In this document: positions 34,202-58,619 of the stretch, in pieces
How positions within the stretch are numbered: the first letter of the stretch is position 1
Layout: each line of letters starts with the position of its first letter
Source of the DNA: Chromatiales bacterium
GTDB lineage: Bacteria > Pseudomonadota > Gammaproteobacteria > SZUA-152
NCBI GenBank assembly: GCA_026982555.1
Contig: JALSGT010000062.1
Span: 2,610-66,609 of the forward strand
Direction of reading: 5' to 3'
DNA: 64,000 nt
The notes under the pieces: model-generated
The model's database searches: none
What the model saw: only the letters and a program-made list of their open reading frames with translations
Told to the model about the DNA's origin: nothing
Program-made: the position numbers and the translations under genes

Positions 34202-37200
34202 TTATTTTACTGAGAGGGATAGGGGTTTCCACGCTAACATATCAGTAAATAACAGTCCTGCTTTAATGGGTAACGTTGGCCACAGGCGTTGAATGCCAAT
34301 GCGATAGTAGTTGAGCTGTGGTTGATAGTGTTCGGCCAGCGCGTCGAGTTTGGCTGTATTATCAATGTGATGGGTTTTGTAATCCACCAGCCAGATACAT
34401 TTTTTACTGATAACCAGACGATCAATAATGCCATACACACTTTGGCCTTCGTTAGTGTAATGCAGCGGCACTTCGTTGTGTGCATTGATGAACTGCGCGG
34501 GGTCAAACAGATGGCTGAATGTTGCTGAGTGGAATACGGTGTTGGCGCTGTTGAACCATGTTATCAAGTGGTCATCATCTGTTGACAGGTCTAACTCAGT
34601 GGCGACACGCTGTGGAATATCTGTCGCCTGTTCGCTCAGTAACTGCAACATGCGATGAATGGCGATGCCGCGAGTGCGGGCATCCGGGTCAGCCATATGG
34701 GGCGTCAGAGGCGCAGCCGGACTGACTGATATGTTGCTGGGGGCAATGTTGCTTTTTGGTTTTTCCAGGATAAGTGGCTGAATTTTATGTTGTGGTACGG
34801 TGTCAGCCTCTGGCACGGCAGTGGTTTCTGTTATGTGTGTTGCTGCTTGACCACTGGTGAATATCCATCCAGTGGTTGACAGTTCTTCAGCGGTTTCAAC
34901 AAAGGGCGCTTGCAAAAAACCATACCAGCCTAATGCGTCTCCACGCCGTGGCTGACAACCGGAAATAAACAAAAATTGTTTGGGGCGGGTAATGGCCACA
35001 TACAGCAGGTTGGCATCCTCTCGTGTTTCTGCCTTTGCATGCTGGTCGAGAATATTTTGTGTGAAAGTATCTTGTTGTTCTTTAGTGCCCGTCAGCAAAA
35101 AACTGACGGGACGCGGTGCTTGTGCCGGCCAGTCCACAATGGCCTGGTGTGCGACAGAATTGTTGCGTACGTTGGTGCTGTCCACCAAAAAAACCACGGG
35201 TGCTTCCAGACCTTTAGCGGCATGAATCGTCATCAGGCGGACACGGGAACCCGCCTGCAAAGGGCTGCCTTCATCCGGCGCATCCTGTTCCTGCTGTTGC
35301 AGGGTGTGCAGTCGCGATACAAAACGTCCAATGGAGGGATAGCGGCCACTGTCGATTTCCAATGCCAGTTCAATAAAGCGTGTGAGGTTGGCTGCCACCC
35401 GATGTTGCAGGTGTGCCGGATAGGCTGAATGGTAGCGGTTGAGTACATCGCCTTCACAGTAAATGCGATCCAGTAAATCGTGTACGGGCAGGGTGTCTAC
35501 CTGTGCCCGCCAGCGTGACAATAGCATGTGCGCGCGTTGTAAGGCGCTGCTCCTGTTTTCAAGGGCAACAATTGTCGTCAGGCGATCTATCCACTGGCCA
35601 TCTGTATGACTGGCGAGGGCAATGAGATCTTCGTGGCTGCAATCAAACAGGGGGGAGCGCAGTACGCTGGCGAGTCCAAGATTGTTGAAGGGGGTGACCA
35701 GTAATGACAATAAACGTACCAGGTCTTGCACTTCCAGGCTTTGCAGCAGGGTGCCGCGATTAGCTCCGATGTAAGGGATGTCGGCTTCGCGCAGGGCTTT
35801 TTCGTAGTCACCGGCGTGGGTGCGATGGCGCAGCAGAATAATAATATCGCCGTAATTCAATGGGCGCGCTGCATCGGTGGTGCCGGTGAGGGTATTGTTG
35901 TCAATCAGGTGACGGATTTTTTTTGCCACCAGCCGACCCTCTTCAAGGTGACGCTGATCCTGTTTTAGCAGGCGGGGCGTTTGCAGGGGGTTGCGCAGGG
36001 GGGCGCATAACTCGCCAGATGTTCTGTCCGTGCTTCCTGTTTCGTCGTCTGCGGCAGCAATGAGGGGTAAAAATTCAACGTGCCCCCACAGTTGCGGATG
36101 ATGCGTGGCATGGGTGGAAAATTGCATGAGCTGTTGATGCAGTGGACCCTCGCCAAACACACGGTTCACCAAGGTCATAATGGCTTCTGCGGAACGCCAG
36201 GAAGTGTCCAGCGGCTGGGTGATGGCATCAAGCTGTGTATCCAGCCAGTTTTGTGCGGTAACAAACAGTTCCGGGTCGGCGCGTCGAAAGCGATAAATGG
36301 ATTGTTTATTGTCGCCCACCAGAAACACGCTACGGCTGTGCCGGGTTTCATTGGCTGCCAGTTCTTCCAGCAATGGCAGGATGAGTCGCCACTGGGTGGG
36401 GTTGGTATCCTGAAATTCATCAATCAGTAAATGGTCTATGCGTTGATCCAGTTTGTACTGAATCCATTGAACATTGTCACTGTGATTTAACAACTGGTAA
36501 GCCTGCCATTCCAGGTCCGCAAAATCCAACAGGCGTTGTTCGGTTTTCAGTTGTTGATAGTGGGCCAGTAATGCATTGCCCGCCTGATACCAGGCACCGG
36601 TACGGCACAGTGTGTCCATGGCGTTGCGAATGTTCAGGGTCTGTGCAATTTGTTCACATATCCGGTGGTGGAGTTCCAGAAAGCGTTGTTGGCCTGTGTC
36701 ACCCATGGATTTTGCCTGGGTTTTGGACTCTTTGCGTGCCAGTGGTGTGCCGGAAGCCGTTAAAAAGGCTTTACAGCATTGTGCAAAACGTCTGTCGGGC
36801 TTCTCGTTTTCATCGCGGGCGATAGCGAGGGCATCTAATGCCGCAGCATTTTTTTTGCCGGGATGTTTTTGCAGCAGGCCCACAAATTCTGCGAGCAGGG
36901 TCAGTGTGGCCGTGTTGAAAAAATCGGTTTCCGGTTTATCCGTTGCACTGACATTGAGCTGTGTGCTCAATGTTTCCATGGCAAAGCCGAGCGGGTCCGC
37001 TTGTGACTCGGTGAAGGCCCACCAGTCACTGCGATGTTCGAGAAAACGGTTGAGCGCGGTTTGTGTATTGGCCAGACTGTTGCAGCTTTCAAACAGTGTT
37101 TCGATGGCCTGGGCATTATCGCTCTGCGGGTGGCGACTGGCGTCTGCACATAAAGCATCCCAGGCGGCACGTTTTAATTCCGCGGTAGATTCCAGTAATT

Positions 37201-37621
37201 CAAAACCGGGTGGAATACCGGCCTCCAGCGGGAAGCGTCGCAGGATATCCTGGCAAAAGGCATGGAAGGTGGTGGTTTTTACCTTGAAAGGCGAGCGCAA
37301 TAAATCTTCGTACAGTGTGGTGGCTCGTTTGAGTGTCACAGCATCAGCGGGCGCATCGATTTGCTGAAGTAAGGTTTTCAGCCCGGCAGGTGTACTCTGC
37401 GCCAGTTCCAGCAGGCGGGCATTGAGGCGGGTCTGCATTTCTGTGGCGGCCTTGCGGGTAAAAGTGACCGCAAGGATGCCGTCGGCCCGTGCGCCAGCAA
37501 GCAGTAAGCGAATCAGCCGGGTGACCAGCAACCAGGTTTTGCCAGTGCCTGCGGAGGCGTTAACAGTGGCGTTATGTTCGGGGTCGCAAGCGCGCAGGGG
37601 GTTGGCCATGGTGAGGCGCAT
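34202..37621 (-). CDS. UvrD/Rep-family helicase fused to a C-terminal RecB-type PD-(D/E)XK nuclease (AddA-like)
   Basis: Walker A ASAGTGKTW, motif II LLIDEFQDTNPTQW, C-terminal nuclease motif GIIDRLV ... WLVDYKTH. Length 1139 aa. Confidence 0.85.
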   Translation of the reverse strand: MRLTMANPLRACDPEHNATVNASAGTGKTWLLVTRLIRLLLAGARADGILAVTFTRKAATEMQTRLNARLLELAQSTPAGLKTLLQQIDAPADAVTLKRATTLYEDLLRSPFKVKTTTFHAFCQDILRRFPLEAGIPPGFELLESTAELKRAAWDALCADASRHPQSDNAQAIETLFESCNSLANTQTALNRFLEHRSDWWAFTESQADPLGFAMETLSTQLNVSATDKPETDFFNTATLTLLAEFVGLLQKHPGKKNAAALDALAIARDENEKPDRRFAQCCKAFLTASGTPLARKESKTQAKSMGDTGQQRFLELHHRICEQIAQTLNIRNAMDTLCRTGAWYQAGNALLAHYQQLKTEQRLLDFADLEWQAYQLLNHSDNVQWIQYKLDQRIDHLLIDEFQDTNPTQWRLILPLLEELAANETRHSRSVFLVGDNKQSIYRFRRADPELFVTAQNWLDTQLDAITQPLDTSWRSAEAIMTLVNRVFGEGPLHQQLMQFSTHATHHPQLWGHVEFLPLIAAADDETGSTDRTSGELCAPLRNPLQTPRLLKQDQRHLEEGRLVAKKIRHLIDNNTLTGTTDAARPLNYGDIIILLRHRTHAGDYEKALREADIPYIGANRGTLLQSLEVQDLVRLLSLLVTPFNNLGLASVLRSPLFDCSHEDLIALASHTDGQWIDRLTTIVALENRSSALQRAHMLLSRWRAQVDTLPVHDLLDRIYCEGDVLNRYHSAYPAHLQHRVAANLTRFIELALEIDSGRYPSIGRFVSRLHTLQQQEQDAPDEGSPLQAGSRVRLMTIHAAKGLEAPVVFLVDSTNVRNNSVAHQAIVDWPAQAPRPVSFLLTGTKEQQDTFTQNILDQHAKAETREDANLLYVAITRPKQFLFISGCQPRRGDALGWYGFLQAPFVETAEELSTTGWIFTSGQAATHITETTAVPEADTVPQHKIQPLILEKPKSNIAPSNISVSPAAPLTPHMADPDARTRGIAIHRMLQLLSEQATDIPQRVATELDLSTDDDHLITWFNSANTVFHSATFSHLFDPAQFINAHNEVPLHYTNEGQSVYGIIDRLVISKKCIWLVDYKTHHIDNTAKLDALAEHYQPQLNYYRIGIQRLWPTLPIKAGLLFTDMLAWKPLSLSVK

Positions 37622-38425
37622 ATTATCCTAACACGTTGGCCGCATCCACTCTCACCCACTGTTTCGGCGTTACTCTGATAATCCACTGATTAGCCGTATC
37701 TTCATAATTCCATGTGGTGCGCAAATAACCAAAGTGCAGAGTAAAGTAGTTTTTCAGAATATGTTGAATTTTCTATAAGGCGTCAGGCGGCGCATTTTTT
37801 ATTCAAAATAATTTGAAAAATACGTTGCCTTTTGCGCTGTTTATTCACTATTTCTGGTGGTAAATGGAGGTGCAACTGATTGAATGTTAGATATTTCAAT
37901 AAATGAAATGAAATCTCGGAAAATGATAATAAGAAAACGGTTTTGCATAACTTGATTTTGCTTCCGCTATAAGCAGTGGTAGTATTCGCAGTTATGTTGT
38001 AGTGCTGTGTCGTTTGGGAATGTTAGGCTGTGCCTGCCCGTTTAGTTTTCGCACCTGTTAGTTTGGTTTTTTGCGATTACCTAACGGTAGCGTACTTCAT
38101 ATCAAAATATCCCATAACTGATTTTAGTGAGAGCAGGTGATGGAAGAGGAAACAGCCGGGCAGGCACACGTTGGATTAAAAAGTTAGCTGCATAACACAT
38201 AAATAATAAGAAGTTGACTTTCGTTTGCTTAGGTTAGGAATAAAAGCGTCAATCATCAATTAGGGGAGGTGTTTATTCTTGGTTACAGTCATATTTAATT
38301 TTATTTAGGAACCGATTGTTTTGTCGGAGAGCTAAGCCGGGTTGAAGTCAAAGAAACTTTAATATTCTGGAACGTTAGCTTGATATTGTTTTTACGCAGG
38401 AGCACGCAGGAGAGTAGGTATAAGC
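37622..38425. promoter_or_regulatory. 804-bp AT-rich non-coding region upstream of the repeat lipoprotein gene and of addA (divergent)
   Basis: There is no ORF of 60 aa or more on either strand and the composition is strongly AT-rich. It contains the 15-mer ACGTTGCCTTTTGCG (37822-37836), which also occurs in all three MITE copies. I could not place a promoter with confidence. Confidence 0.4.
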
Positions 38426-40588
38426 ATGGATACAAGGAAAAAAATTATTATTGCGGGGATTTTAACGTCATCACTGGTGATCGCAGGCTGTAGCGATAAC
38501 GCATCCGACGATTCCTCTTCAAATTCAGAACCAGAACCAAAACCAGATGGTATTTACTCTCTTAACCTGACTGGAGGCCTGGGTGGTACCAATGGTGGGT
38601 CAGGTGGTGACGGTAACAATGTCAGCCTTTACAAGGCAGCAGGTACGGGAAGTGTCGAAGTGCTGGCCGACGGCGCCGCTGATGCCGGTTTTACCCGTAT
38701 TACCCCCGATGTCAACCTGGGGAGTAATCCGCTGGATATTACAACGGGTATTACCGTCGATGTTTTTGCGGAAGACGCGGATGAGCCCGCTGCGGGCACT
38801 CCCTATCTGATTGAGGATAACGGAAGACTGTTTGTATCGGACGGTAATACTGTTCTGGGTGACGAAGCCCCGGTAACGGGCATTAGCGTCGCCAGTGGCG
38901 TTACCTTGACCCTTGGTCTCAACGACACAACTTACGCCCGAATCAGTTTTGATAACGACGTGCTCAATTCCGGTGTCATAACCACGGCGGATATCGATGA
39001 GCTGCATCGTGGTGGTTTGCGCATTTATCCTGCATCGTATGTGGGACAGGCTGACAGCCGTATTGATACTGCCGGTACACAGGACAGTCAAAACGGTGGT
39101 GATGTGCTGATATCAGCTGATTATTCTGTATACAATCATGGCGCAGTTAACACAAGCGGATCAGATAGCGTCGATGACGATGCTGCTGCTGGCGGATATG
39201 TTGAACTCTATGCCGACTATCTCGTGCAAAACACCGGTGATATTGATAGCTCGGGTGGTGATGCCCCCAACGGTGAGGCAGGTCGTGGCGGGAATATTGA
39301 TCTGGCATCCGATTTTGGCAATATGTATAACAGCGGTCGTCTGGTCAATTATGGCGGTGATGGCCAGCTCGGCGGCGACGGCGGCCTGATTAATCTCTAT
39401 GCCGTTGGTGACATGCTGAACAGCGGTGATATCAATGCCCGGGGCGGTATCGGTGGCGCAGATGACGGCGGTAATGGTGCCAGCGTCGAGATGTACGCTT
39501 CCGGTCGCAAACTGGTGAACAGTGGTAACATTTTGGCCGCAGGTGGTAATACAACCGATGCTGATTCCGATGGTGGTGACGGTGGAGAGTTGTATGTTTA
39601 TGCAGAGTACGGCCCTGTTGACAGAGACGCACCCGCAGGTGGTCTTTTTGTTTCCGGCAATATTGATCTTTCCGGCGGCGACGCGGTAGCGACAGGTTAT
39701 GGTGACGGTGGTGTTGCCGGTTCCATTGATGTTCAGGTCTATGGCTCCAATTATCCTTCCGAAGTGGGCTTGGCCCTCCTGGGTTATACCGATATTGACA
39801 CCACAGGTGGTGATGCCAACTTTGGTGGTTCTGCCGGTGATGTGCTTATCTTCAACGATAGCGTGCAGGCCAATGCCGGTGTATACGTGCCGTCTGGCAA
39901 TGTCACCAACGAAGCCGACGTGACTGCTCGTGGCGGCAGTGTCGTGGCGGAGGCGGAAACAATACCGGCGGATGGTGGATCAGGTGGTAATTTCAGGCTG
40001 GAAACTGAAGATAAATATGGTTACATCAATCCTCAGCTGGAGATAACGACTAACAAAGGCAATATTGATGTGTCGGGTGGTAATGGTCTGGAATCAATGA
40101 TGAACGATATCAATCGTTCCGGCTCTGTCTGGCTTTGGGGTTACAACGGCGTCACCAATACCGGCAACATCACTGCAAATGGCGGCGCTGATCTGGGCAC
40201 CGACGGTGATGACACAGGCTACGGTGGTTATGCCAATGATATTGAAATGTATGCAGAGCTAGGCCAGGCCAGCAACAGCGGCAGCATTACGAATAATGGT
40301 GGTGCTGGTGAATACCGGGGTGGTCGTTCAGATGGTTTTAAACTGTATGGAATCACAGTCAGCAATAGTGGTGTGATCAGCTCGAATGGTGGTAATGCAG
40401 ATGCAAGTCTGGAGGGTTCTATCGGTGGCTCCGGTGGCTGGGTTGAGTTTTTCTCGCCGGGTGGTGTTGCCGGTGTGACTCATTCAGGCTCCGTAAGCCA
40501 CACTGCCGGTACGGGTGAAACCGCTAACGATGGTGGTGCCTTTATTCGCGGTGGCATGTGTGTCAGTGGTGATTGTAAGCCTCAGTAA
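38426..40588 (+). CDS. Gly/Asp-rich repeat lipoprotein (predicted surface or periplasmic beta-solenoid-like protein), unknown family
   Basis: Lipoprotein signal MDTRKKIIIAGILTSSLVIAG|C with Ser at +2, then an S/D/P-rich linker. Ten or more degenerate units of the form N(S/T)G-x-I-x3-GG-x(4-10)-GG-x-GG-x-(I/V)-x-(L/M)-Y-A follow. The C-terminus is CVSGDCKPQ. Confidence 0.7.
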   Translation: MDTRKKIIIAGILTSSLVIAGCSDNASDDSSSNSEPEPKPDGIYSLNLTGGLGGTNGGSGGDGNNVSLYKAAGTGSVEVLADGAADAGFTRITPDVNLGSNPLDITTGITVDVFAEDADEPAAGTPYLIEDNGRLFVSDGNTVLGDEAPVTGISVASGVTLTLGLNDTTYARISFDNDVLNSGVITTADIDELHRGGLRIYPASYVGQADSRIDTAGTQDSQNGGDVLISADYSVYNHGAVNTSGSDSVDDDAAAGGYVELYADYLVQNTGDIDSSGGDAPNGEAGRGGNIDLASDFGNMYNSGRLVNYGGDGQLGGDGGLINLYAVGDMLNSGDINARGGIGGADDGGNGASVEMYASGRKLVNSGNILAAGGNTTDADSDGGDGGELYVYAEYGPVDRDAPAGGLFVSGNIDLSGGDAVATGYGDGGVAGSIDVQVYGSNYPSEVGLALLGYTDIDTTGGDANFGGSAGDVLIFNDSVQANAGVYVPSGNVTNEADVTARGGSVVAEAETIPADGGSGGNFRLETEDKYGYINPQLEITTNKGNIDVSGGNGLESMMNDINRSGSVWLWGYNGVTNTGNITANGGADLGTDGDDTGYGGYANDIEMYAELGQASNSGSITNNGGAGEYRGGRSDGFKLYGITVSNSGVISSNGGNADASLEGSIGGSGGWVEFFSPGGVAGVTHSGSVSHTAGTGETANDGGAFIRGGMCVSGDCKPQ

Positions 40589-40610
40589 TCAGGTTTTGAA
40601 CGAGGTATCG

Positions 40611-40642
40611 GCGTGGCGGGATTTTCCCGCCACGCTTTTTTT
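40611..40642 (+). terminator. Rho-independent terminator after the lipoprotein gene
   Basis: gcgtggcggg-attttc-ccgccacgc (perfect 9-10 bp GC-rich stem) followed by T7, 23 nt after the stop. Confidence 0.85.
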
Positions 40643-40668
40643 AACTCTGAAATAATGGATGGTATGAA

Positions 40669-41430
40669 ATGGCTTCTTCTTACAGGCTGCTTTGCCAAAT
40701 ATTGTTTACCAGTATTGTTCTTTTTATGAGCAGCCAGCTTTGGGCTGAGTCACCTCATGTTTCTTATGATAAATCAACAGATACGATTTCTATCGTGGCA
40801 ACGGATGCATCGTACAAAGCAATAATGGCACGTATTGCGACGCTGAGCGGTGTTGAAATTCTTATGGACCCCAAAGCTGAACATAATATTACTATCGAGG
40901 TGAGTGATTTGCCTCTCGAAACGGCGCTGAAGCAACTGAGCCGTCAAACCAGTTTTGTGCTTATTCATGATATTCCTGAAACGGATGTGAATGAATCCCA
41001 GGAGAAATCAGTTCAGCCTGTACTGGTTCGTATGCGCATACTGCCGGAAGGTGAGTTTACTACGGATGCGATATACCCTGTTTTGGCCCCTGGGGGTGAA
41101 GCTTTTATTCGAGAAAAAAATCGTTACTTAGCACCTGCCCAGCAGGTTGACATTTTTAATCATGCCCAAAGGCGTTGGGAAGCCCGGCTGAAAGCAATGT
41201 CGCCGGAAAAACGGGAAAAACTTCTGGATATCGCACAAGAAAAACGTGAACAAATGGCCCAGAATCGTGCTGAACAGGCGCAAAGAAAAAAAGAACTTGC
41301 AGAAAAGCGCGAAGCTTATAAAAAACGACGTGATGCCCGGCTTGAGGAATTAAAATTAATGGACCCGGAACGATATGAACTCCGAATGAAACGGCGAATG
41401 GAAAGGCAGCAGGGCGTTAACAGCGAGTAA
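40669..41430 (+). CDS. Secreted protein with an STN/secretin-N-like module and a K/R/E-rich coiled-coil tail
   Basis: Sec signal MASSYRLLCQILFTSIVLFMSSQLWA|ES. ISIVATDASYKAIMARIATLSGVEILMDPKAEHNITIEVSDLPLETALKQLSR follows the STN pattern. C-terminal RRWEARLKAMSPEKREKLLDIAQEKREQMAQNRAEQAQRKKELAEKREAYKKRRDARLEEL. Confidence 0.6.
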   Translation: MASSYRLLCQILFTSIVLFMSSQLWAESPHVSYDKSTDTISIVATDASYKAIMARIATLSGVEILMDPKAEHNITIEVSDLPLETALKQLSRQTSFVLIHDIPETDVNESQEKSVQPVLVRMRILPEGEFTTDAIYPVLAPGGEAFIREKNRYLAPAQQVDIFNHAQRRWEARLKAMSPEKREKLLDIAQEKREQMAQNRAEQAQRKKELAEKREAYKKRRDARLEELKLMDPERYELRMKRRMERQQGVNSE

Positions 41431-41702: not shown

Positions 41703-42914
41703 ATGCCAGAAAATGATCGTCCGCCCTATATGCCAGATGTCGGTATCACGGCTGTTGTGCCTGATGAGTGGGGTGGTCCCTGGGAGTCTCGTCATCAGGT
41801 TTTAACCCGGCTGGCAAAGTATTTTAATGTTGTGTGGGTAAACCCCGTGGAATGGTGGAATGAATCATGGTTTGGGGCTCGCAGTGACAGATTTTTGTCT
41901 TCTCGAACTCAGGATTTACCGCATGGGTTTTCAGTTTTTGACAGAAGTTATTTTTTCCCCGGTTTTGGAAAGCCATGGATTGACTATGCCAGTGAATACA
42001 GCCGTCTTGCCATCGCAAGGAATACATTGCGAAAGCGAGGCAGCAAAGCGCACGTACTTTACCTTTGGAGAGATTCATTTTTCTCCGCGATGGATCGGGG
42101 AAGGTATGATGCAAGCTGTTATCACATTGATGACGAGTATACTTTTTCGGATGTTGATATTCCTAATTCCCCCAGAGAGGAAAACCTGATTAAAAGAGTT
42201 GATCAGGTTTTTATTTCTTCTCCTGCCCTGATGGCTAAAAAAGGGCATTTAAATTCACAGACTGCCCGCATTCCTAATGGGGTAAATGTTCGTGAATATA
42301 TCATCCCCAAGGATGAGCCCGAAGATATGGTGGGTATTCCCCACCCGCGAATCGGTTACGTTGGTATTATCAAACGGCAGTTGAATGTTGATTTGTTACT
42401 TGAAGTGGCAGTACGACACCCCGAATATTCTTTTGTGTTTGTTGGTCCAAAACGGCCTGACCTGCAAGATGATGGAAAAAAGTGGGAAAAGCTTGAGTCG
42501 CTTTCCAATACATATTTCGTTGGAGGAAAGCCGGTTTTTGAGCTTCCCGCCTATACGCAGCATATGGATGTTTGCATGTTGTGTTATACCCTTAACGACT
42601 ACACGAAGTATATCTATCCGTTAAAGCTGCATGAATACCTTGCTGCCGGCAAGCCTATTGTGGGTGTCCCGCTGGAGTCTTTAAAAGGGTTCGCTGAATA
42701 TATCCATTTTGCCGTTACCGTTGATGAATGGGAAGCTGGAATTCAGTTGGCTTTGAATGATGCGTCACGATCAGATGAAAGGGTGGAGGCACGAAAAAAT
42801 GTTGCGCGTGAGCATGACTGGGATGTGTTGACGTATAAAATTGCGCATAAAATCTGCGAACGTCTTGGCCCAGACTATGTAGCACGGTTACCGGAAGAAA
42901 CAAAAATAGAATAA
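41703..42914 (+). CDS. GT-B glycosyltransferase (distant paralogue of 15725..16915)
   Basis: It shares sequence blocks with the EPS-locus gene (see that feature) and lies between two secreted-protein genes. Confidence 0.7.
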   Translation: MPENDRPPYMPDVGITAVVPDEWGGPWESRHQVLTRLAKYFNVVWVNPVEWWNESWFGARSDRFLSSRTQDLPHGFSVFDRSYFFPGFGKPWIDYASEYSRLAIARNTLRKRGSKAHVLYLWRDSFFSAMDRGRYDASCYHIDDEYTFSDVDIPNSPREENLIKRVDQVFISSPALMAKKGHLNSQTARIPNGVNVREYIIPKDEPEDMVGIPHPRIGYVGIIKRQLNVDLLLEVAVRHPEYSFVFVGPKRPDLQDDGKKWEKLESLSNTYFVGGKPVFELPAYTQHMDVCMLCYTLNDYTKYIYPLKLHEYLAAGKPIVGVPLESLKGFAEYIHFAVTVDEWEAGIQLALNDASRSDERVEARKNVAREHDWDVLTYKIAHKICERLGPDYVARLPEETKIE

Positions 42915-43280: not shown

Positions 43281-46200
43281 ATGGTGGTAAGGCTAGATAG
43301 AAGTAGACTGTATTGCGGTGCGATTGTCGCACTGTTCTTATTGATCAGCGTGAGCACAGCACAGGCAATGTCATTTACATCAGATGATTTTAGTTCCTCT
43401 TCTCTGGACGCATCATTGTGGACCGTAGTTGATCCCCGTGGTGACAGTACACTCCAGTTAAACGGTACCCAGTTAACTATTTCCGTACCCGATGGCCTGA
43501 GCCATGATCTCTGGGAAACCGATCAGAATGCTGTTCGTGTTTTGCAGAATATTGACGATACCGATTTTGAGATTGAAATAAAGTTTGAATCGAACCTGAG
43601 CCAACGATTTCAGGTTCAGGGGTTATTTGTTGAGCAGGATGATCAAAATTTTCTGCGGTTCGATTTTTATTATGATGGTGCTGTTCTTCGTGTTTTTGCG
43701 GCGAGTTTCATTGCTGGAATCCCTACGATTCAACATGAGGCAATCATTACAAATGGCTCGCCGCTATACCTGCGCGTTCAACGGGCAGGGGACCAGTGGA
43801 CGCAGTTTTATTCCTATGATGGTACTAACTGGAATCAGGGCGCGGCATTTTCACACCCGTTGCTTGTCACAAGAGCTGGTCCCTTTGCGGGTAACGCTGG
43901 CAGCCCCGCTCCCGCGTTTACCGCAGTGGTTGATTATGCTTTCAATACCGCGTCCCCGATTATTTTTGAAGATGCAAACGATCCTCTCGATACTATGCCT
44001 CCGTCTATTTCAGATATTGCGATACAGGAAGGCCCGACGCGGGCCCGGGTAAGCTGGTCAACGGATGAGCCGACAATAGGGGCGGTTGAGTATGGCACAA
44101 CGGCCAGCTTTGAGCTTGGGCAGGTTGCCACCGTATCAGGCGGCCAGCAATTTGATGTTTTGCTCGATAATCTCTTACCGGACACAACTTACTATTTCCG
44201 GATTACATCGGAGGATGCCAATGGCAATACCCGGCAGTCAGAGGCATCGCAGTTTGTGACCGCAACTGATGCAGTGCCGCCTGGCCCTTTGATAGACGTA
44301 TGGTATGGTCCAAATCAGCGATTTGGGAATCTGGGTACGCCTCAGCGCTGGGTCAATATTGTGGGTAAAGTGACAGATCCAAATGGCGTGAAATCCCTGT
44401 CCTATCGCGTCAACGGTCAACCTGCCCGACAGCTTTCAATGGGGCCTGATGAAAATCGTTTACATTCTTTAGGCGATTTCAATGCTGAAATCAATGCAGT
44501 TGGGCCGGATGCCGAGTTGAATGTCGGTTTGAATACTGTTGAAATTACGGCGGTGGATAATCTCGATTATTCCACCGTTGAAGTTGTTACTGTGGAATTC
44601 AGCAATAATACTGTTTGGTCACTGCCATATGCTGTCGATTGGTCAAGTGTTACGCAGCCCTGGGATGCGGTTCAAATTGTCGATGGGCTTTGGGATATAC
44701 AAGGTTCTGAAGCCCGGCCTTTGGAACTGGGCTACGACAGGCTGATTGCCATTGGTGATATGTCCTGGACGGATTATGAAATTACCGTGCCGTTTACTGT
44801 GCATGGACTTGAGCCGGGTTATGTTTACGCTGGCCCCTCATTCAGTCCGGGAATCGGTGTTTTATTACGGTGGAGCGGACACTTTGACTGGAATGGCGCG
44901 CAACCTAATACGGGCTGGTGGTCATTTGGCGGGTTTGGGTGGTATCGCTGGAGACAGCCATCTGCGGGTGGTGAGCGTTTTCAAATCATGGGCAATGATG
45001 GCAGTATCATTGCGGATCGCGCTGAATCAAATTTCCCGTTCGGTGTTCCTCATGTTCTCAAGATGAGAGTAGAAACGCCGCCTAACGAAGGCAGCATATA
45101 CAGTCTCAAGATGTGGGAGCAGGCGCAACCTGAGCCGGCGGGATGGGATCTTGTCTCCCAGGAATTACCCACAGACCCTCAAAGCGGTTCACTGCTTCTG
45201 GTTGCACATCATGTTGACGCAACCTTTGGTAATGTCACGATTGTTCCCGCAGGAGATACGACAGGGCCCACGAACAGCAATATTCAGGTGACCAGCTCAG
45301 AAACAGTGGCGACCATTAGTTGGGTGACGAATGAGCCAGCAGCGGTGTCTCTGGCGTATGGTGTTACCAGTAATTATGAATTGGGAACGGTCTCCGACCC
45401 TGCTCTGAATACCAGCCACTCCGTCGAGCTTACCGGGTTAAGCTCTGCTACCGCCTACCAATTCCAGCTGACGGCGACGGATGAAACCGGGAACAGCAGC
45501 AGTTCCGTGAACAGGATTTTTGCCACTTCGGGCGTGATTCCACCTGGCCCGCAATCGGATTATTTTAATGCCGCGACACTGGATGCCCGCTGGACCACAG
45601 TAGACCCGCTGAATGATAACAATGTCACACTGACCGGCACCCAGGTTGCACTGAATATTGTTGGTGGCCCATCGCATGATGTGTGGGCCTCAGGCAACGA
45701 TACCTTGCGTTTGATGCAAGATGTCCTGGACCAGGATTTTATGGCGGAAGTGAAATTTGACTCTCTGCCAACTCAGCAGTATCAGATACAAGGGATACTG
45801 GTTGAGCAGGACAATGATAATTTCCTGCGCTTTGATTATTTTAGTGATGGAACAGACCTGCGGATATTTTCGGCCAGCTTTGTCAACGGGGTACCGACGG
45901 TGCGAGTGGACGATGTTGTATCATTAAGTGCGCCGATGTATCTGCGTGTAGTACGAGTGAGTGACACCTGGATATTGTTGTACAGCGGGGATGGCGTGAG
46001 CTGGACAGCGGCGGGAAGTTATATGCATAGCTTGCAGATGAATACCATGGGTATATTTGCTGGCAATGCACAGGCAGGTAATGCACCTGCCTATACTGCA
46101 CTGGTGGATTATTTTTTGACGGATGTTGAAGCACCGATTCCGGATACCACCCCGCCACTGATTGATAATATTGTGGTGGACAGTGCGGGTGAAGAAGCAA

Positions 46201-49200
46201 CACTGAGCTGGATAACGGATGAACCTGCTGACAGTCAGGTTATGTACGGCACGGCACCCGGGACGTATGAACTGGGTACCGTATCGAGCGCGACACTGAC
46301 ACAGAACCACAGTATTACCCTGACGGGACTGACTCTCGGCACTGTGTATTACTACCAGGTGAGTAGCAGTGATGCGGACAACAATACTGGTAGCAGCGTT
46401 GATCTTAATTTCCTTGCGGAAGATCTGACAGCACCGACAATCAGCGATGTTCAAATTGTGAGAGTGGATAGCAGTGCGACCATCAGTTGGGTCACCAATG
46501 AACCTGCCGACAGTATGCTCGACTATGGCGAGACCACTGCCTATGAGCTGGGTACGGTTTCGAGTGCTGCAGGTACCAGTCACTCTGTTGTGCTTAACGG
46601 ATTGACGCCAGGTGTCATGTATTATTTCCAGCTTACGGCGACCGATAGCAGCAATAACAGCGGCAGTTTATCGAATCAGGCATTTTTAATGTTTGGGCCA
46701 CAATCAGATGACTTTAATGCCGCAACACTGGATGCCCGCTGGATCACGGTAGACCCGCTGGGTGATAACAGTGTTGCATTGACGGGCAGTCAGCTTGAGT
46801 TGAATGTTACCGGCGGTCAGCCGCACGATGTGTGGACTTCGGGCAACGATGCCTTGCGTTTAATGCAAACAGTGGTAGATCAGGACTTTGTGGTGGAAGT
46901 AAAGTTTGATTCTCTGCCAACTCAGCGATATCAGATACAAGGCATTCTGGTTGAGCAGGACAATGGTAATTTCCTGCGTTTTGATTATCTGAGTGATGGC
47001 ACGGACCTGCGGATATTTTCGGCCAGTTTTGCCAATGGAGTGCCGACAGCGCAAATAAATAATATTGTGTCGTTGGGTGTACCTCTGTATTTACGTGTGG
47101 AACGAGTGAGTGATACCTGGACACTGTCTCACAGTGAGGATGGTGCGAACTGGACAGTGGCTGGAAGCTATGTACACAGTCTGCAAGTGAATACTATCGG
47201 TGTGTTTGCGGGTAACACTGGCGGGAGTGGTTCCCCGGCCTACACCGCACTGGTGGACTCTTTTGTGACGAATGCGGTGGTACCTGTCCCGGATACGACT
47301 GCGCCACTGATTGATAATGTTATGGTGGATCGTGCGGGTGAGGAAGCAACGTTGAGCTGGACAACGGATGAACCTGCTGACAGTCAGGTCATGTATGGCA
47401 CGGCACCGGGGACATATGAACTGGGTACCGTATCGAGTGCGGCGTTAACACAAAACCATAGCATTACCTTGACGGGGCTGATCCCCGGCACCGTGTATTA
47501 CTACCAGCTGAGCAGTCGTGATGCGAACAACAACACCGGCAGCAGTGCCGATCTTAATTTCCTGGCGGAAGACCTGGTGCCGCCGACGATCAGTGATGTT
47601 CAGGTTACGAGAGCTGACAGCAGTGCAACCATCAGCTGGATCACAAACGAACCCGCCAGTAGTGTGCTTGAGTATGGCGAGACTAATGCCTACGAGCTGG
47701 GCTCAGTTTCGAGTGGCAGCACAGGTACCAGTCACTCTGTTGTGCTGAGTGGGTTAACGTCTGATGTTATGTATTATTTCCAGCTCACGGCGACTGATGG
47801 CAACAATAATAGCAACAGTCTGTCGAATCAGACATTTATGATGTCCGGGGTACAATCGGATGACTTTAACACGACGATATTGGATTCCCGCTGGACCACG
47901 ATAGACCCGCTGGGCGATAACAGTGTTGCATTAACGGGCAGTCAGCTTGAGCTGAGTGTCGCGGGTGGTCAGCCGCATGATGTGTGGATCTCGGGCAACA
48001 ATGCTTTGCGTTTAATGCAAACCGTGGTGGACCAGGATTTTGTGGCGGAAGTGAAGTTTGATTCTCTGCCGACCCAGCGATATCAGATACAAGGCATTCT
48101 GGTTGAGCAGGACAATGGTAATTTCCTGCGCTTTGATTATATTAGTGACGGCACGGACCTGCGGATATTTTCGGCCAGCTTTGTTGATGGTGTACCTACG
48201 TCACGGGTTTACGATGTTGTGTCACCGGGTCTGCCACTGTATTTACGTGTGGAGCGGGTGGGGGACACCTGGACGCTGTCGTATAGCGGGGACGCTGTGA
48301 ACTGGACGATAGCTGTCAGTTATGTACACAGCCTGCAAGTGAATGCCATCGGCGTGTTTGCAGGTAACACCGGAGGGAGTGGTTCTCCTGCTTACACGGC
48401 ACTGGTGGATTATTTTCTTACGAATGCCACAGCCTTTGTTCTGGATACGATTCCACCAGTGATCGGCGATATTATGGTGGACAGTGTGGGCGAAGAAGCA
48501 ACACTGAGCTGGACAACGAATGAACCGGCAAACAGTCAGGTCATGTACGGCACGGCACCGGGGACATATGAACTGGGTACCGTATCAAGTGCGGCGTTAA
48601 CACAAAATCACAGCATTACCCTGACGGGACTGACCCCCGGTACCGTGTATTACTACCAGCTGAGCAGCAGTGATGCAGACAACAACACCGGTAGTAGTGC
48701 CGATCTTAATTTCCTTGTGGAAGACCTGACGGCACCGGTGATCAGTAATGTTCAAGTCGTGAGAACGGCGGCCAGTGTGACCATCAGCTGGGTCACCAAT
48801 GAATCCGCCAGTAGTGTGCTTGAGTATGGCGAGACTAATGCCTACGAGCTGGGCTCAGTTTCGAGTGGCAGCACAGGCACCAGTCACTCTGTTGTACTGA
48901 GTGGGCTAACGCCTGACGTTGTGTACTATTTACAGATCACGGCAACTGACAACAGCAATAACAGCAGTTTAGTGAATCAGACGTTTTTAATATCGGACTC
49001 ACAATCGGATGATTTTAACACCACAATATTGGATGCCCGCTGGACCGTGGTGGATCCGCTGGGTGATGGCAGTGTTGGTCTGACGGGCAGCCAGCTTGAA
49101 CTGAATGTCCCCGGTGGTCAGTCTCACGATGCATGGACCGCAGGTAACGATACATTACGTTTAATGCAAAATGTCGAGGACCAGGATTTTGTGGCGGAAG

Positions 49201-49589
49201 TGAAGTTTGACTCCCTGCCAACCCGGCGATATCAGATACAAGGCATTCTGGTTGAGCAGGATAATGGTAACTTCCTGCGTTTTGATTATATTAGTGACGG
49301 CACGAGCCTGCGGATATTTTCGGCCAGTTTTGTGGATGGAGTACCCACGTCACGGGTTTACGATGTTGTGTCGTTGGACGCACCGTTGTATCTGCGTGTG
49401 GAGCGGGTGGGTGATACCTGGACATTGTCGCACAGTGGGGATGGTGTGAGCTGGACGGTGGCCGTGAGTTATGTGCATAGCCTGCAGGTGAATGCCATTG
49501 GTGTATTTGCCGGTAACACATGGGGCGCTGGTTCACCTGCCCACACAGCACTGGTAGACTATTTTACGACGGATGCAGTTGCGCAGTAA
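43281..49589 (+). CDS. Giant secreted multidomain protein (2102 aa): 5 ConA-like lectin/glucanase-type modules, 1 divergent jelly-roll region and about 8 FN3-like modules
   Basis: Signal peptide ...IVALFLLISVSTAQA|MS. Recurring roughly 200-aa module SDDF..(L)D.RW..VDP.GD ... HD.W ... RL.Q ... DF..EVKFDS ... YQIQGILVEQD..NFLRFDY ... LRIFSA ... LYLRV.R.GD.W ... S.DG..W ... FAGN ... YTALVDYF. Recurring FN3-like module (A)TISWVTNEPA.S ... YG ... YELG.VSS ... HS(I/V).L.GL.P..VYY(Y/F)Q(L/V). No C-terminal PEP-CTERM, LPXTG or T9SS-like tag is visible. Confidence 0.85.
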   Translation: MVVRLDRSRLYCGAIVALFLLISVSTAQAMSFTSDDFSSSSLDASLWTVVDPRGDSTLQLNGTQLTISVPDGLSHDLWETDQNAVRVLQNIDDTDFEIEIKFESNLSQRFQVQGLFVEQDDQNFLRFDFYYDGAVLRVFAASFIAGIPTIQHEAIITNGSPLYLRVQRAGDQWTQFYSYDGTNWNQGAAFSHPLLVTRAGPFAGNAGSPAPAFTAVVDYAFNTASPIIFEDANDPLDTMPPSISDIAIQEGPTRARVSWSTDEPTIGAVEYGTTASFELGQVATVSGGQQFDVLLDNLLPDTTYYFRITSEDANGNTRQSEASQFVTATDAVPPGPLIDVWYGPNQRFGNLGTPQRWVNIVGKVTDPNGVKSLSYRVNGQPARQLSMGPDENRLHSLGDFNAEINAVGPDAELNVGLNTVEITAVDNLDYSTVEVVTVEFSNNTVWSLPYAVDWSSVTQPWDAVQIVDGLWDIQGSEARPLELGYDRLIAIGDMSWTDYEITVPFTVHGLEPGYVYAGPSFSPGIGVLLRWSGHFDWNGAQPNTGWWSFGGFGWYRWRQPSAGGERFQIMGNDGSIIADRAESNFPFGVPHVLKMRVETPPNEGSIYSLKMWEQAQPEPAGWDLVSQELPTDPQSGSLLLVAHHVDATFGNVTIVPAGDTTGPTNSNIQVTSSETVATISWVTNEPAAVSLAYGVTSNYELGTVSDPALNTSHSVELTGLSSATAYQFQLTATDETGNSSSSVNRIFATSGVIPPGPQSDYFNAATLDARWTTVDPLNDNNVTLTGTQVALNIVGGPSHDVWASGNDTLRLMQDVLDQDFMAEVKFDSLPTQQYQIQGILVEQDNDNFLRFDYFSDGTDLRIFSASFVNGVPTVRVDDVVSLSAPMYLRVVRVSDTWILLYSGDGVSWTAAGSYMHSLQMNTMGIFAGNAQAGNAPAYTALVDYFLTDVEAPIPDTTPPLIDNIVVDSAGEEATLSWITDEPADSQVMYGTAPGTYELGTVSSATLTQNHSITLTGLTLGTVYYYQVSSSDADNNTGSSVDLNFLAEDLTAPTISDVQIVRVDSSATISWVTNEPADSMLDYGETTAYELGTVSSAAGTSHSVVLNGLTPGVMYYFQLTATDSSNNSGSLSNQAFLMFGPQSDDFNAATLDARWITVDPLGDNSVALTGSQLELNVTGGQPHDVWTSGNDALRLMQTVVDQDFVVEVKFDSLPTQRYQIQGILVEQDNGNFLRFDYLSDGTDLRIFSASFANGVPTAQINNIVSLGVPLYLRVERVSDTWTLSHSEDGANWTVAGSYVHSLQVNTIGVFAGNTGGSGSPAYTALVDSFVTNAVVPVPDTTAPLIDNVMVDRAGEEATLSWTTDEPADSQVMYGTAPGTYELGTVSSAALTQNHSITLTGLIPGTVYYYQLSSRDANNNTGSSADLNFLAEDLVPPTISDVQVTRADSSATISWITNEPASSVLEYGETNAYELGSVSSGSTGTSHSVVLSGLTSDVMYYFQLTATDGNNNSNSLSNQTFMMSGVQSDDFNTTILDSRWTTIDPLGDNSVALTGSQLELSVAGGQPHDVWISGNNALRLMQTVVDQDFVAEVKFDSLPTQRYQIQGILVEQDNGNFLRFDYISDGTDLRIFSASFVDGVPTSRVYDVVSPGLPLYLRVERVGDTWTLSYSGDAVNWTIAVSYVHSLQVNAIGVFAGNTGGSGSPAYTALVDYFLTNATAFVLDTIPPVIGDIMVDSVGEEATLSWTTNEPANSQVMYGTAPGTYELGTVSSAALTQNHSITLTGLTPGTVYYYQLSSSDADNNTGSSADLNFLVEDLTAPVISNVQVVRTAASVTISWVTNESASSVLEYGETNAYELGSVSSGSTGTSHSVVLSGLTPDVVYYLQITATDNSNNSSLVNQTFLISDSQSDDFNTTILDARWTVVDPLGDGSVGLTGSQLELNVPGGQSHDAWTAGNDTLRLMQNVEDQDFVAEVKFDSLPTRRYQIQGILVEQDNGNFLRFDYISDGTSLRIFSASFVDGVPTSRVYDVVSLDAPLYLRVERVGDTWTLSHSGDGVSWTVAVSYVHSLQVNAIGVFAGNTWGAGSPAHTALVDYFTTDAVAQ
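45552..49589 (+). repeat. In-frame tandem DNA repeat, period 1149-1152 bp, about 3.5 copies, inside the giant gene
   Basis: Unit starts caatc(g/a)gat(t/g)a(t/c)tttaa at 45552, 46701, 47853 and 49002. Long stretches are near-identical between copies, for example 47670-47760 vs 48823-48913 and 46901-47040 vs 48060-48200, which differ at only scattered positions. Confidence 0.88.
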
Positions 49590-49712: not shown

Positions 49713-50639
49713 TTATTTGCGGGCTCGTTTGCGCCTTATTTCATTGACGAGTTCTTTCCATAATTCCTTCCGCAGCCAAAAAAGCTCTTTACCGACCGAT
49801 TTTAGTAAATCAAGCTTATGCTGAAAGGACAGCGGTGAACGAATAATGCTGGAAGCAATTTTTTGGAGACAGGTCCATGATTGCAACGAAATGCGGTTTT
49901 TGGTTGCCGGGTCGTAGAATTCCTGTTTACTTGCTGTTTCAGCTTCGGGCCATGAAAAAGATTGGTCATGGCGTCTCATTGATAGCAGGCAGTCAGGCAC
50001 CTCACAGAATTTGCCGAGCAGTATCAGTTCGATGAGCAGTGTCGTATCTGCACCAATGTAATTGCCGATCAAGCGCGTTTTTCGCAGAGCATCTGATTGA
50101 ATAAGACCGAATATATACGTTCCCTTCCATCCAGAGACACGCTTGCCTGAGCGCTGGAACATTTCCATTAATGCATGGTATCGCATGCGTGGATCATTTG
50201 AGGTCAGGCTCAGATAGTCATCCAGTACCAGACCTTTGATTGGTGTTCCCTGGTCGTCAATACCATCTCCCCTGGAAAACGCCAACACGGCTTCAGGATC
50301 ACTCCGGCCAGCTTTCAGGCAACTTTCCAGATACGTTGGCTCGCAAATATCATCAGCAGCTGCCCATTTGAAATAGTCTCCTGTTGCTAATGCAAATGTG
50401 TTGTTAAAATTCCATGCGGCACCCCGGTTATGGTCATAACGGTAGTATCGAATACGTTCATCATTAGTCGCGTATTTTTCACAGATTTCACCTGTGCGAT
50501 CTGTTGAGCCATTGTCAGATATGATGAGTTCAAAATCCGGGAAGGTTTGGCCTAGAATGGAGTCTATTGCTGCGCTGAGGAATTTTTCACCGTTGTAAAC
50601 GGGAATGCCGATACTGATTAGCGGTTTTTTTGTCATCAA
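49713..50639 (-). CDS. Family 2 glycosyltransferase
   Basis: ISIGIPVYNGEKFLSAAIDSILGQTFPDFELIISDNGSTD, a classic GT-A/GT2 N-terminus. Confidence 0.9.
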   Translation of the reverse strand: MMTKKPLISIGIPVYNGEKFLSAAIDSILGQTFPDFELIISDNGSTDRTGEICEKYATNDERIRYYRYDHNRGAAWNFNNTFALATGDYFKWAAADDICEPTYLESCLKAGRSDPEAVLAFSRGDGIDDQGTPIKGLVLDDYLSLTSNDPRMRYHALMEMFQRSGKRVSGWKGTYIFGLIQSDALRKTRLIGNYIGADTTLLIELILLGKFCEVPDCLLSMRRHDQSFSWPEAETASKQEFYDPATKNRISLQSWTCLQKIASSIIRSPLSFQHKLDLLKSVGKELFWLRKELWKELVNEIRRKRARK

Positions 50640-50673
50640 TTGCTAAACCCTGTTGTCACATAATCTATTTTAT

Positions 50674-52158: not shown

Positions 52159-52441
52159 TGATACCCCGGCATGAGATTTAAACCACCCGCATTAGATTAG
52201 TACAACACTGCGCCAGAGACCTCTGGGGAACGGCATGAGTTGTAAGTGAAAAAACCGCACAGCATACCAAATAGATCACTATTTTACTTTGTTTGTGTGA
52301 GGTGCAAAGTACCACTAACAGATTGACACGTACTTGGATTATTATTTTGTACTAGGCCCGAGTTTAGGCTGGCTTTGAGTGACAATTTGAAAATGGGGTC
52401 TACACGGGAAAATCACAGGTTTTTGGTCGGCGATGGTTAAA

Positions 52442-52639
52442 CCTAAATTCCGCAGTTGACCGCTTCGAGGATGTATTCACATTTTGATAAATCGCTTGCT
52501 GGGTGGTTTTGGCGCATTCATTGGTTGAATGAGTCGCGACGACCTGTATAGCACGTTGCCTTTTGCGTCTGGCCGCGTCGCGCCTTGCCAGCCACAAAAT
52601 TCAACGCACTCTACAGGCCGTTCAACTGCGGAATCTAGG
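52442..52639. mobile_element. MITE-like element, copy B (198 bp; lacks a roughly 35-bp internal module)
   Basis: TIRs CCTAAATTCCGCAGTTGA ... TCAACTGCGGAATCTAGG flanked by the direct repeat TTAAA (52437-52441 and 52640-52644). It lies in the divergent wzx / rfbF intergenic region. Confidence 0.75.
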
Positions 52640-52957
52640 TTAAATGACGGTCATGAATTACTGAATTGTGGTCATGAGTTACACAAGCGGTTGGAACGCA
52701 AATGAGAAAAGGCCGGCAAGGGAGAAAGTCGGGCTGGCTATGTTATCATTGCCCCCGAAAACGGGGTCCCACCCTGTGAAGAAATGGAGCCGATTTTAAG
52801 CTCCCGGCATATAGAGCTGCTGAGCATTCCACTGTTGGTGTAAGCCAAGGTAAGATGGCGACCTCCGGCTGTTGTTGTGTGGCGGAGCAGGGTATAAGGC
52901 CGTGCCGGAGTTGTGGGTGCATTGGATGACAGAAAACAAGATAACTTGGAGAATTAT

Positions 52958-53728: not shown

Positions 53729-53734
53729 TGTGAA

Positions 53735-54757: not shown

Positions 54758-54872
54758 TTCCTGATCAAGGAAAGACACTTTCAGGGTCGGCGTAAATTCA
54801 CGTCAACTGTACGGCCACGGCGTATTGCCCGGTGATGCCGTCACGAACACTTCAACAGGTGAAATTAAGGAT

Positions 54873-56102: not shown

Positions 56103-56197
56103 GCAGATATCGTTAAGTCATCACAATTGGCCTGAATATAGCCACTGTGATACAGCGCGAAAAATGTATAAAACACTATTTTAGAGATAGCAAAACG

Positions 56198-57385: not shown

Positions 57386-57413
57386 TGGCAATGTCAGCAG
57401 GAGAAGAATAGCA

Positions 57414-58616: not shown

Positions 58617-58619
58617 CCG

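Follow-up and report, generated by a model that had tools for sequence, protein, structure and literature searches.

The lipoprotein gene and its repeat units

The 64,000-nucleotide (nt) stretch analysed here, called the window below, was taken from contig JALSGT010000062.1 (positions 2,610 to 66,609, forward strand) of the Chromatiales bacterium assembly GCA_026982555.1. At 38426..40588 on its plus strand lies an open reading frame (ORF) with an ATG start, which encodes a 720-amino-acid (aa) lipoprotein carrying an array of degenerate repeats. The gene of a 253-aa secreted protein, the partner (40669..41430, +), begins 80 nt past the lipoprotein stop codon, and an intrinsic-terminator-like hairpin stands between the two genes. 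A Shine-Dalgarno-like AGGAGAG was read directly from the sequence at 38408..38414 (+), 11 nt 5' of the lipoprotein ATG.

The translation opens with a predicted lipoprotein signal peptide (aa 1-21) and a predicted lipidated cysteine, Cys22 (38426..38491, +). A positively charged n-region, MDTRKK, is followed by a hydrophobic core and then by the lipobox L-V-I-A-G directly before C22. The complete signal sequence is MDTRKK-IIIAGILTSSLVIAG up to C22, and the pattern used as the lipobox criterion, [LVI][ASTVI][GAS]C, was found at MDTRKKIIIAGILTSSLVIAG plus C22. The same pattern occurs in 88 of the 99 aligned family members, in which S or G usually stands at +2. Cys22 itself is at least 90% conserved in alignment A1 and invariant in the 28-sequence alignment A3. 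The next 18 residues, aa 23-40 (38492..38545, +), form an S/D/P/E-rich tether, which is the least conserved region of the lipoprotein. This tether is disordered in the AlphaFold2 (AF2) model, where the predicted local distance difference test score (pLDDT) stays under 50 over aa 1-31 and lies around 40-53 in the blocks that reach to aa 40. An earlier note on this DNA had recognised both the lipobox (VIAG before C) and an S/D/P-rich linker, and both readings hold.

In composition, the lipoprotein contains 19.4% Gly, 9.9% Asp and 7.6% Asn, and its mature form has 97 acidic and 24 basic residues, giving a net charge of -73. Judged from its signal sequence, it would be held in the cell envelope by a lipid anchor. 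The +2 Ser rule points to the outer membrane as the probable site, with surface exposure as a possibility.

The earlier note had further proposed a periodic NSG-x-I ... GG ... GGxGG-x-I-x-LYA repeat, and motif counts, profile comparisons and the family consensus agree in bearing this out. For the motif N[ST]G-x-[ILV], 8 occurrences compare with 0.30 expected, and for N-x-G-x-[ILVM]-x3-GG likewise 8 with 0.08; in 5000 shuffles that preserved the composition, neither count was ever reached. The family alignment A3 was cut into 17 segments at anchor positions, and the sub-alignments were compared pairwise with hhalign. The 12 units at aa 234-683, together with a first coil at aa 41-75, align mutually in register, with most probabilities at 85-98% and E-values down to 1e-12. 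When a hidden Markov model (HMM) of the unit was run on all six translated frames of the window, 12 significant copies were found, all inside the lipoprotein gene, and no paralogues were detected elsewhere in the window. Two to three degenerate copies beyond these 12 bring the overall number to about 14. On the strength of these sequence comparisons, the units are true homologous repeats.

Across the 12 units and 28 sequences, the consensus reads G-x-[VLI]-x-N(83%)-[ST]-G(78%)-[ND]-[ILV](88%)-x-x-x-G(99%)-G(84%)-[DN] ... G-G(89%)-x-[GA]-G-x-[VIF]-x-[LIM]-[YFW]-[AG], and further core positions are I/L/V at 78-82%. The 24-residue unit cores share a mean identity of about 29% (range 8-46%), and no DNA-level tandem repeat was found in the gene; the array is therefore old and diverged. 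Units are 30-48 aa long, apart from a first, atypical unit of 56 aa. The 28-36-aa degenerate units described in the earlier note are thus real as degenerate repeats, but their length range had been set too narrow and the stretch at aa 76-177 is not repetitive.

Along the mature protein, the tether leads into the first repeat-like coil at aa 41-75 (LNLTGGLGGTNGGSGGDGNNVSLYK; 38546..38650, +), which matches several canonical units at 90-95% hhalign probability. It is followed by a conserved non-repeat segment at aa 76-177 (38651..38956, +). This segment gave no hhalign match to any unit, is all-beta by its DSSP strands and has the highest non-glycine conservation of the lipoprotein in the conservation profile. 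The atypical long unit at aa 178-233 (38957..39124, +) contains the conserved D178 and bears the first NSG-x-I motif; its hhalign match is marginal. The array of 12 canonical units then extends over aa 234-683 (39125..40474, +), as delimited by the unit HMM, the hhalign matrix, the per-unit strands and the family column statistics, with unit starts at aa 234, 266, 299, 329, 362, 406, 451, 492, 540, 575, 614 and 644. The last 37 residues, aa 684-720, form together with the stop codon (40475..40588, +) a C-terminal degenerate unit or cap, which hhalign likewise matched only marginally, at 90% to unit 614-643 and to no other. It holds a C-x-S-G-x-C pair (C711 and C717) that is present in part of the family.

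The intergenic leader upstream of the lipoprotein gene (37622-38425) is unusually long (804 bp) and AT-rich. Among close relatives it is kept in length and in blocks (CATAACTTGATTTTGCTTCC to ATAAGCAGTGGTAGTATTCG), and its final ~110 nt are nearly invariant. Neither an Rfam match nor a sigma-54 consensus at up to two mismatches was found in this leader, and Rfam and tRNA scans of the whole window gave no matches.

An uncatalogued family and its predicted fold

A word-indexed search returned 198 relatives of the lipoprotein. When 1.84 billion representatives were searched exhaustively with a profile, the family grew to 843 clusters (50% identity) at E<=1e-3, with 661 at <=1e-10 and 476 at <=1e-30. 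Most relatives are 700-870 aa long and align end to end. The named genomes that carry members are metagenome-assembled genomes (MAGs) of several Gammaproteobacteria, one Nitrospirota and one Acidiferrobacterales; one isolate-level relative, at 29% identity, comes from Bermanella sp. Distant members keep the ~680-aa core and insert extracellular modules after the signal peptide, namely DUF7151 (1-6 copies), collagen triple-helix repeats, three Calx-beta domains or Big_9/cadherin-like domains; one of them adds a C-terminal DUF1554. These fusions argue for an envelope or extracellular, stalk-mounted role of the core. When a profile of three units was used to look for the repeat in proteins of different architecture, it recovered only 5 C-terminal fragments from the same family.

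Non-glycine conservation peaks at aa 76-233, a stretch that comprises the non-repeat segment plus the atypical first unit. The conserved non-Gly residues across the 99 sequences are Asn, Thr, Tyr or hydrophobic, and D178 is the sole conserved charged residue. This pattern is weak evidence against a conserved catalytic site and favours a scaffold or binding role.

Two paralogous members, of 824 aa and 831 aa, were seen in one locus (L016, 1708-9496), where the partner gene follows the first copy only. A CapK_C protein lies between the two paralogues and a 1545-aa Calx-beta protein downstream.

Searches against catalogued families gave no assignment. With the lipoprotein as query, Pfam-A and NCBIfam yielded no match at E<=10; across all 28 members of A3, Pfam gave nothing significant and only two stray matches, both at E>0.1. 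The PADLOC scan of the lipoprotein returned nothing and the PHROGs scan only signal-peptide noise. PDB sequence searches with the single sequence, with a 741-position family profile built from the 99 sequences and with a 33-position repeat profile built from 96 units returned noise only, including antibody complementarity-determining regions and a signal peptide. The family is large and uncatalogued, without a Pfam or NCBIfam model or a name in any source, and as far as the sequence searches reach, the repeat cannot be assigned to any existing family among those searched.

Several candidate families were looked for by name, without a significant sequence match. The RTX nonapeptide, GGA[ILV], FxxN and GG[AN]GG were counted directly in the lipoprotein, with 0 occurrences each, and Chlam_PMP, Autotransporter and PE gave no Pfam match, in agreement with the earlier statement that the repeat is not of the RTX, Pmp or PE-PGRS type. 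The pectate-lyase-like clan (Beta_helix, Pectate_lyase, Glyco_hydro_28, NosD) was not matched by the query at E<=10 or by the 28 members at E<=1. For two-partner secretion (TPS) proteins and filamentous haemagglutinin (FHA), neither Haemagg_act nor Fil_haemagg was matched by the query or the 28 members. The DUF4097 toastrack (PF13349) was matched by 1 of the 28 members, at E = 0.13 and below the gathering score. In the literature on DUF7151 or similar glycine-rich beta-helix lipoproteins nothing relevant was found, with the partial exception of a 402-aa Flavobacterium antifreeze-like lipoprotein, taken to be unrelated.

AF2, run with the 99-sequence alignment, gave a model with a pLDDT of 92.9 and a predicted TM-score (pTM) of 0.90, and the five models ranged from 92.6 to 92.9. 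Only the signal peptide and the linker fall below a pLDDT of 50, and the non-repeat segments are predicted as confidently as the units. A confident known-family match in HHpred or Pfam and a disordered model were the two outcomes that the earlier note had named as telling against its proposal; what was obtained instead is the absence of such a match in Pfam and a confident all-beta, solenoid-like model, as the note had suggested. DSSP gives each unit of the model the order b1-b2-arc-b3: the first strand spans 4 residues up to the Asn, the second covers 2-3 residues at the Ile, the arc is bridged here and there, and the third strand takes in 5-6 residues at x-I-x-L-Y-A. The layout of a strand, a Gly/Asp-rich loop and a second strand with an aromatic end, also put forward earlier, is seen in the predicted strands and in the consensus. 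The position after G-G is [D/N] in 61% of unit positions, the flanks of b2 are N/D and T/D/N, and arc residues other than Gly are poorly conserved across units.

Together, DSSP and column conservation place three strands per coil, an Asn ladder and an aliphatic stack in the predicted model, and the strand pattern is that of a predicted three-sided parallel beta-helix of about 17 coils with an aliphatic core. In the coil layout we propose, b1 would end in a stacked Asn (the 'Asn ladder') and pass into an S/T-G turn, and b2 would be centred on a buried Ile/Leu/Val, with a G-G-[D/N] corner after it. An arc of variable sequence, rich in Gly/Asp/Asn and closing with G-G-x-G-G, would then lead into b3 (x-[VI]-x-[LIM]-[YFW]-[AG]). 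The glycine doublets would form tight corners, and the alternating aliphatics would make up the solenoid core. The coils would be unusually long because the glycine-closed arc takes up one side.

Foldseek against the PDB found no match at E<=0.001; the best E-value was 0.13 and the TM-score was at most 0.29. The weak matches are nearly all beta-helices: the phi29 gp12 and CBA120 tailspikes, EtpA/HMW1/HxuA, DUF4097-type 'putative adhesins', MpAFP, pectate lyases and antigen 43. A single match in BFVD at E 2.4e-4 was discarded, with a TM-score of 0.23 and a root-mean-square deviation of 21 A.

Right-handed parallel beta-helix proteins (pectate-lyase-like, PbH1, tailspikes) resemble the lipoprotein model in their three short strands per coil, buried aliphatic stack, stacked turn Asn and elongated rod, and proteins of this group dominate its weak Foldseek matches. 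In contrast to these helices, the lipoprotein has coils of 30-48 instead of ~22 residues with a long Gly-rich arc, and neither a sequence or profile match nor a conserved catalytic constellation. The helices of FHA, HMW1, EtpA and HxuA, the last three also among the weak matches, share the local strand-turn-strand motif 'x-L-x-N-x-G-x-I-x-x-x-G-G' and an adhesin-like rod. The lipoprotein, however, lacks a TPS domain, is exported by a lipoprotein signal peptide and not by a TpsB partner, and has coils ~50% longer, owing to the glycine arc.

The RTX beta-roll and the Ca2+-dependent MpAFP beta-helix are likewise acidic solenoids of Gly/Asp-rich repeats and offer a possible analogy for cation-stabilised turns, but the lipoprotein has neither the GGxGxDxUx nonapeptide nor a HemolysinCabind match, its repeat period is 30-48 against 9/18-19, and it carries an N-terminal lipobox where RTX proteins have a C-terminal signal for type I secretion. 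Chlamydial Pmp proteins and autotransporter passengers are also predicted beta-helical surface proteins of degenerate Gly-containing repeats; in the lipoprotein GGA[ILV], FxxN and a C-terminal barrel are absent, and the repeat scaffold continues to residue ~720. The DUF4097 'toastrack' putative adhesins (PDB 4ygu, 3pet, 4opw, 3lyc, 3jx8) are small beta-helical proteins of lipoprotein type that recur among the weak Foldseek matches, whereas the lipoprotein differs from them in size and repeat, and the toastracks have no glycine arcs.

The downstream partner gene and the wider neighbourhood

Homologues of the partner lie directly downstream of a lipoprotein homologue in 13 of 15 informative loci (L001-L005, L007-L012 and L015, and after one copy in L016). 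They are 230-282 aa long, start ~80 bp downstream and share 24-87% identity with the partner of the window, and the pairing persists down to 29% lipoprotein identity. The partner family is uncatalogued as well, with 22 relatives, none of which has a Pfam domain above threshold. In one distant relative (L014, 9239-11261) an insertion sequence element (DDE_Tnp_1 transposase) splits the partner into pieces of 109 aa and 153 aa, and the lipoprotein gene is intact.

The partner protein carries a Sec signal peptide. Its AF2 model (pLDDT 72.7) comprises an alpha/beta domain at aa ~30-125 (pLDDT 73-88) and an ~88-residue helix at aa 165-252. This helix is K/R/E-rich and of the ER/K type, and it is basic (+9, isoelectric point 10.2), as opposed to the acidic lipoprotein. 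The top Foldseek matches of the partner are all secretin N0 domains (XcpQ, GspD, PilQ, LspD) or signalling domains of TonB transducers (FpvA, FoxA), with probabilities of 0.85-0.98 and a target-normalised TM-score (TMt) of 0.63 to the isolated GspD N0, but with E-values of 0.05-0.3. Pfam STN (PF07660) matches 15 of 18 partner members, all below the gathering score of 28.4 bits, with a best E-value of 5.6e-4; the partner query itself reaches 12 bits (E 0.19), also below the gathering score. The possible likeness to secretin N0 and STN signalling domains lies in the predicted beta-alpha-beta domain at aa ~30-125. Unlike secretins and TonB receptors, the partner has no secretin or receptor barrel; its domain stands free, joined to the long basic helix alone.

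Between the two genes, an intrinsic-terminator-like hairpin with a 12-bp stem (9 G-C pairs) is followed by T7 (40610..40643, +; hairpin 40610-40636). The strong terminator reported at 40611-40642 is real; the accompanying description of the gene as monocistronic proved misleading, since a partner homologue follows in so many loci and a hairpin with a T-run recurs between both genes in 11 of 13 loci. The stem sequences are unrelated between lineages. In the stretch from the hairpin to the partner ATG, a sigma-70-like site was looked for and not found. With the partner adjacency, the recurrent hairpin and the lack of such a site in between, the pair looks like a unit of two genes that contains an internal terminator or attenuator. 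We infer that most transcripts would stop after the lipoprotein gene and that a fraction would read through into the partner.

Beyond the pair, synteny is limited to close relatives of the window. The genes for a glycosyltransferase of family GT4, a giant 2102-aa protein and an AddA-like protein are syntenic with the lipoprotein gene in close relatives only, and glycan-related genes stand near some distant members and not near others. A conserved glycosyltransferase link was considered and rejected: a GT4 gene directly upstream of the lipoprotein homologue in L003 is not homologous to the window GT4.

In the window, a surface-glycan locus occupies 41703-42914 (+) and 49713-59822, with GT4, GT2, a Wzx-type flippase, a nucleotidyl transferase, an NAD-dependent epimerase/dehydratase and an FAD oxidoreductase. 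The same locus holds three consecutive genes of the C-methyltransferase family with a Methyltransf_14 C-terminal domain, and the gene set suggests synthesis of a heavily C-methylated deoxysugar. The 2102-aa protein (43281-49589, +) consists of repeated ConA-like (GH43_C2/DUF1349) and FN3 / purple-acid-phosphatase-N-like modules, with internal ~380-aa repeats that are 63-72% identical; its synteny with the lipoprotein in close relatives was seen in L007. Divergent from the lipoprotein gene, at 34202-37621 (-), lies a 1139-aa fusion of a UvrD helicase and a PD-(D/E)XK nuclease (AddA/RecB-like), which is syntenic in L008 and L010. In the Bermanella sp. locus (L005, 2199-10363), genes for an extracytoplasmic function (ECF) sigma factor, a 231-aa putative anti-sigma protein and a DUF2341 protein lie upstream of the pair and one for a 444-aa protein downstream. 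This context hints at envelope-stress or ECF regulation in the Bermanella lineage.

Possible roles in the cell envelope

We lean, with modest confidence, towards the reading that the lipoprotein is a hyper-acidic beta-helical rod, anchored by lipid and built from a new type of repeat, which would serve as a non-enzymatic envelope or surface scaffold or binding module and would be made in excess over a periplasmic N0-domain partner. The highly charged, rigid rod would sit on the flexible 18-residue tether, and its role could be adhesion, or the binding of matrix, glycan or cations. The partner would cooperate with it in the periplasm, where the N0/STN-like domain would serve protein interaction, and read-through of the conserved intergenic terminator would supply the partner in smaller amounts than the lipoprotein.

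Several points weigh against this reading. Every source labels the family members 'hypothetical protein' only, and the partner is missing in 2 of the 15 loci (L013 and L017). Foldseek gave no significant structural neighbour, so that the term beta-helix rests on the strand pattern and the weak matches. In addition, AF2 is known to produce high-confidence yet unrealistic beta-solenoids from perfect repeats (PMC11795689). Finally, glycosyltransferase or sugar-modifying genes lie near some members, which would also suit a polysaccharide enzyme.

That the lipoprotein is such an enzyme seems unlikely. As a lyase, glycanase or epimerase, it would belong to the right-handed beta-helix class and would trim or modify the exopolysaccharide or surface glycan made by the neighbouring genes, in the way of AlgG, PL6 or GH28-type enzymes in other glycan loci. 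The predicted architecture would fit, and the weak Foldseek matches include pectate lyases, polygalacturonases, a PL6 alginate lyase and phage tailspike depolymerases. The pair also adjoins the GT4, GT2, Wzx-type flippase, nucleoside diphosphate (NDP)-sugar and three C-methyltransferase genes of the window; elsewhere, a GT4 is directly upstream in L003, CapK_C stands next to the L016 copy and a GH99 gene is upstream in L017. However, no beta-helix enzyme family was matched in sequence even at E<=10, and D178 as the only family-wide charged residue leaves no conserved constellation of catalytic type. The coil length and glycine content are far from the ~22-residue coils of the pectate-lyase type. 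The adjacent glycosyltransferase, syntenic in close relatives only, is not homologous to that of L003, and other neighbourhoods are unrelated (RND/MMPL, 2-oxoglutarate dehydrogenase, ECF sigma factor).

It is similarly improbable that the lipoprotein is specifically a cation-, mineral- or ice-binding surface protein, a proposal that overlaps with the scaffold or binding role favoured above. Here the G-G-[D/N] corners, the Asp-rich arcs and an [N/D]-I-[T/D/N] ladder along b2 would form a regular array. The net charge of -73, the Asp and Asn contents, the frequent [D/N] after G-G and the N/D and T/D/N flanks of b2 would all suit such an array. Moreover, one distant member has three Calx-beta domains, MpAFP (3p4g) and a Flavobacteriaceae ice-binding protein (5uyt) occur among the weak Foldseek matches, and the source MAGs come, by their isolate names alone, from mineral-rich or deep-sea settings. 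On the other hand, the RTX nonapeptide has no occurrence and HemolysinCabind no match, the arc residues except Gly are poorly conserved, regular T-x-T arrays are absent, and Foldseek E-values of 0.4-1 carry no evidential weight. Calcium binding in particular would be a guess from composition.

It is highly improbable that the solenoid is an AF2 artefact and the lipoprotein in truth a glycine-rich envelope protein of low complexity that is largely disordered: the model has no likeness among solved structures and the glycine content is 19%, but the known artefact concerns perfect repeats and the units here have diverged to 8-46% identity (mean 29%), the alignment is deep, the buried aliphatic positions, Asn ladder and Gly corners are conserved across 843 clusters, length (~700-870 aa) and unit number are conserved, the confident prediction extends to the non-repeat segments, and purifying selection over ~700 residues is hard to square with disorder.

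A bolder version of the favoured scaffold reading, which we regard as unlikely, is that the lipoprotein and its N0-domain partner constitute a two-component envelope module that is widespread in uncultured marine and vent bacteria and has so far gone unrecognised. The wide-coil, glycine-arc solenoid would then form a new class and be displayed on the cell surface as a hyper-acidic rod that binds cations or minerals, and the partner, as a free-standing secretin-N0-like domain on a long basic helix, would act as its dedicated periplasmic pilot or dock.

It should be pointed out that beta-solenoid envelope and surface proteins are well known; the repeat, the family and the gene pair are what is uncatalogued here, and they make a solid candidate for a new domain family. 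On present evidence, no new kind of biology is involved and nothing is overturned, as beta-helical surface proteins are common and the function is one that we infer. In its predicted form the repeat nevertheless represents an unusual solenoid design, with 30-48-residue coils of three short strands and a glycine-closed arc, which is useful for the classification and design of repeat proteins, and the lipoprotein is a good test case for the reliability of AF2 solenoids on glycine-rich degenerate repeats. If the family were defined, hundreds of envelope proteins now called 'hypothetical' would gain an annotation, in environmental Gammaproteobacteria, in Nitrospirota and in related MAGs. The pairing with an N0/STN-like partner across a conserved terminator provides a concrete hypothesis on how the envelope handles such lipoproteins, and if the two-component reading were true, it would represent a new route, or an accessory, for surface-lipoprotein display.

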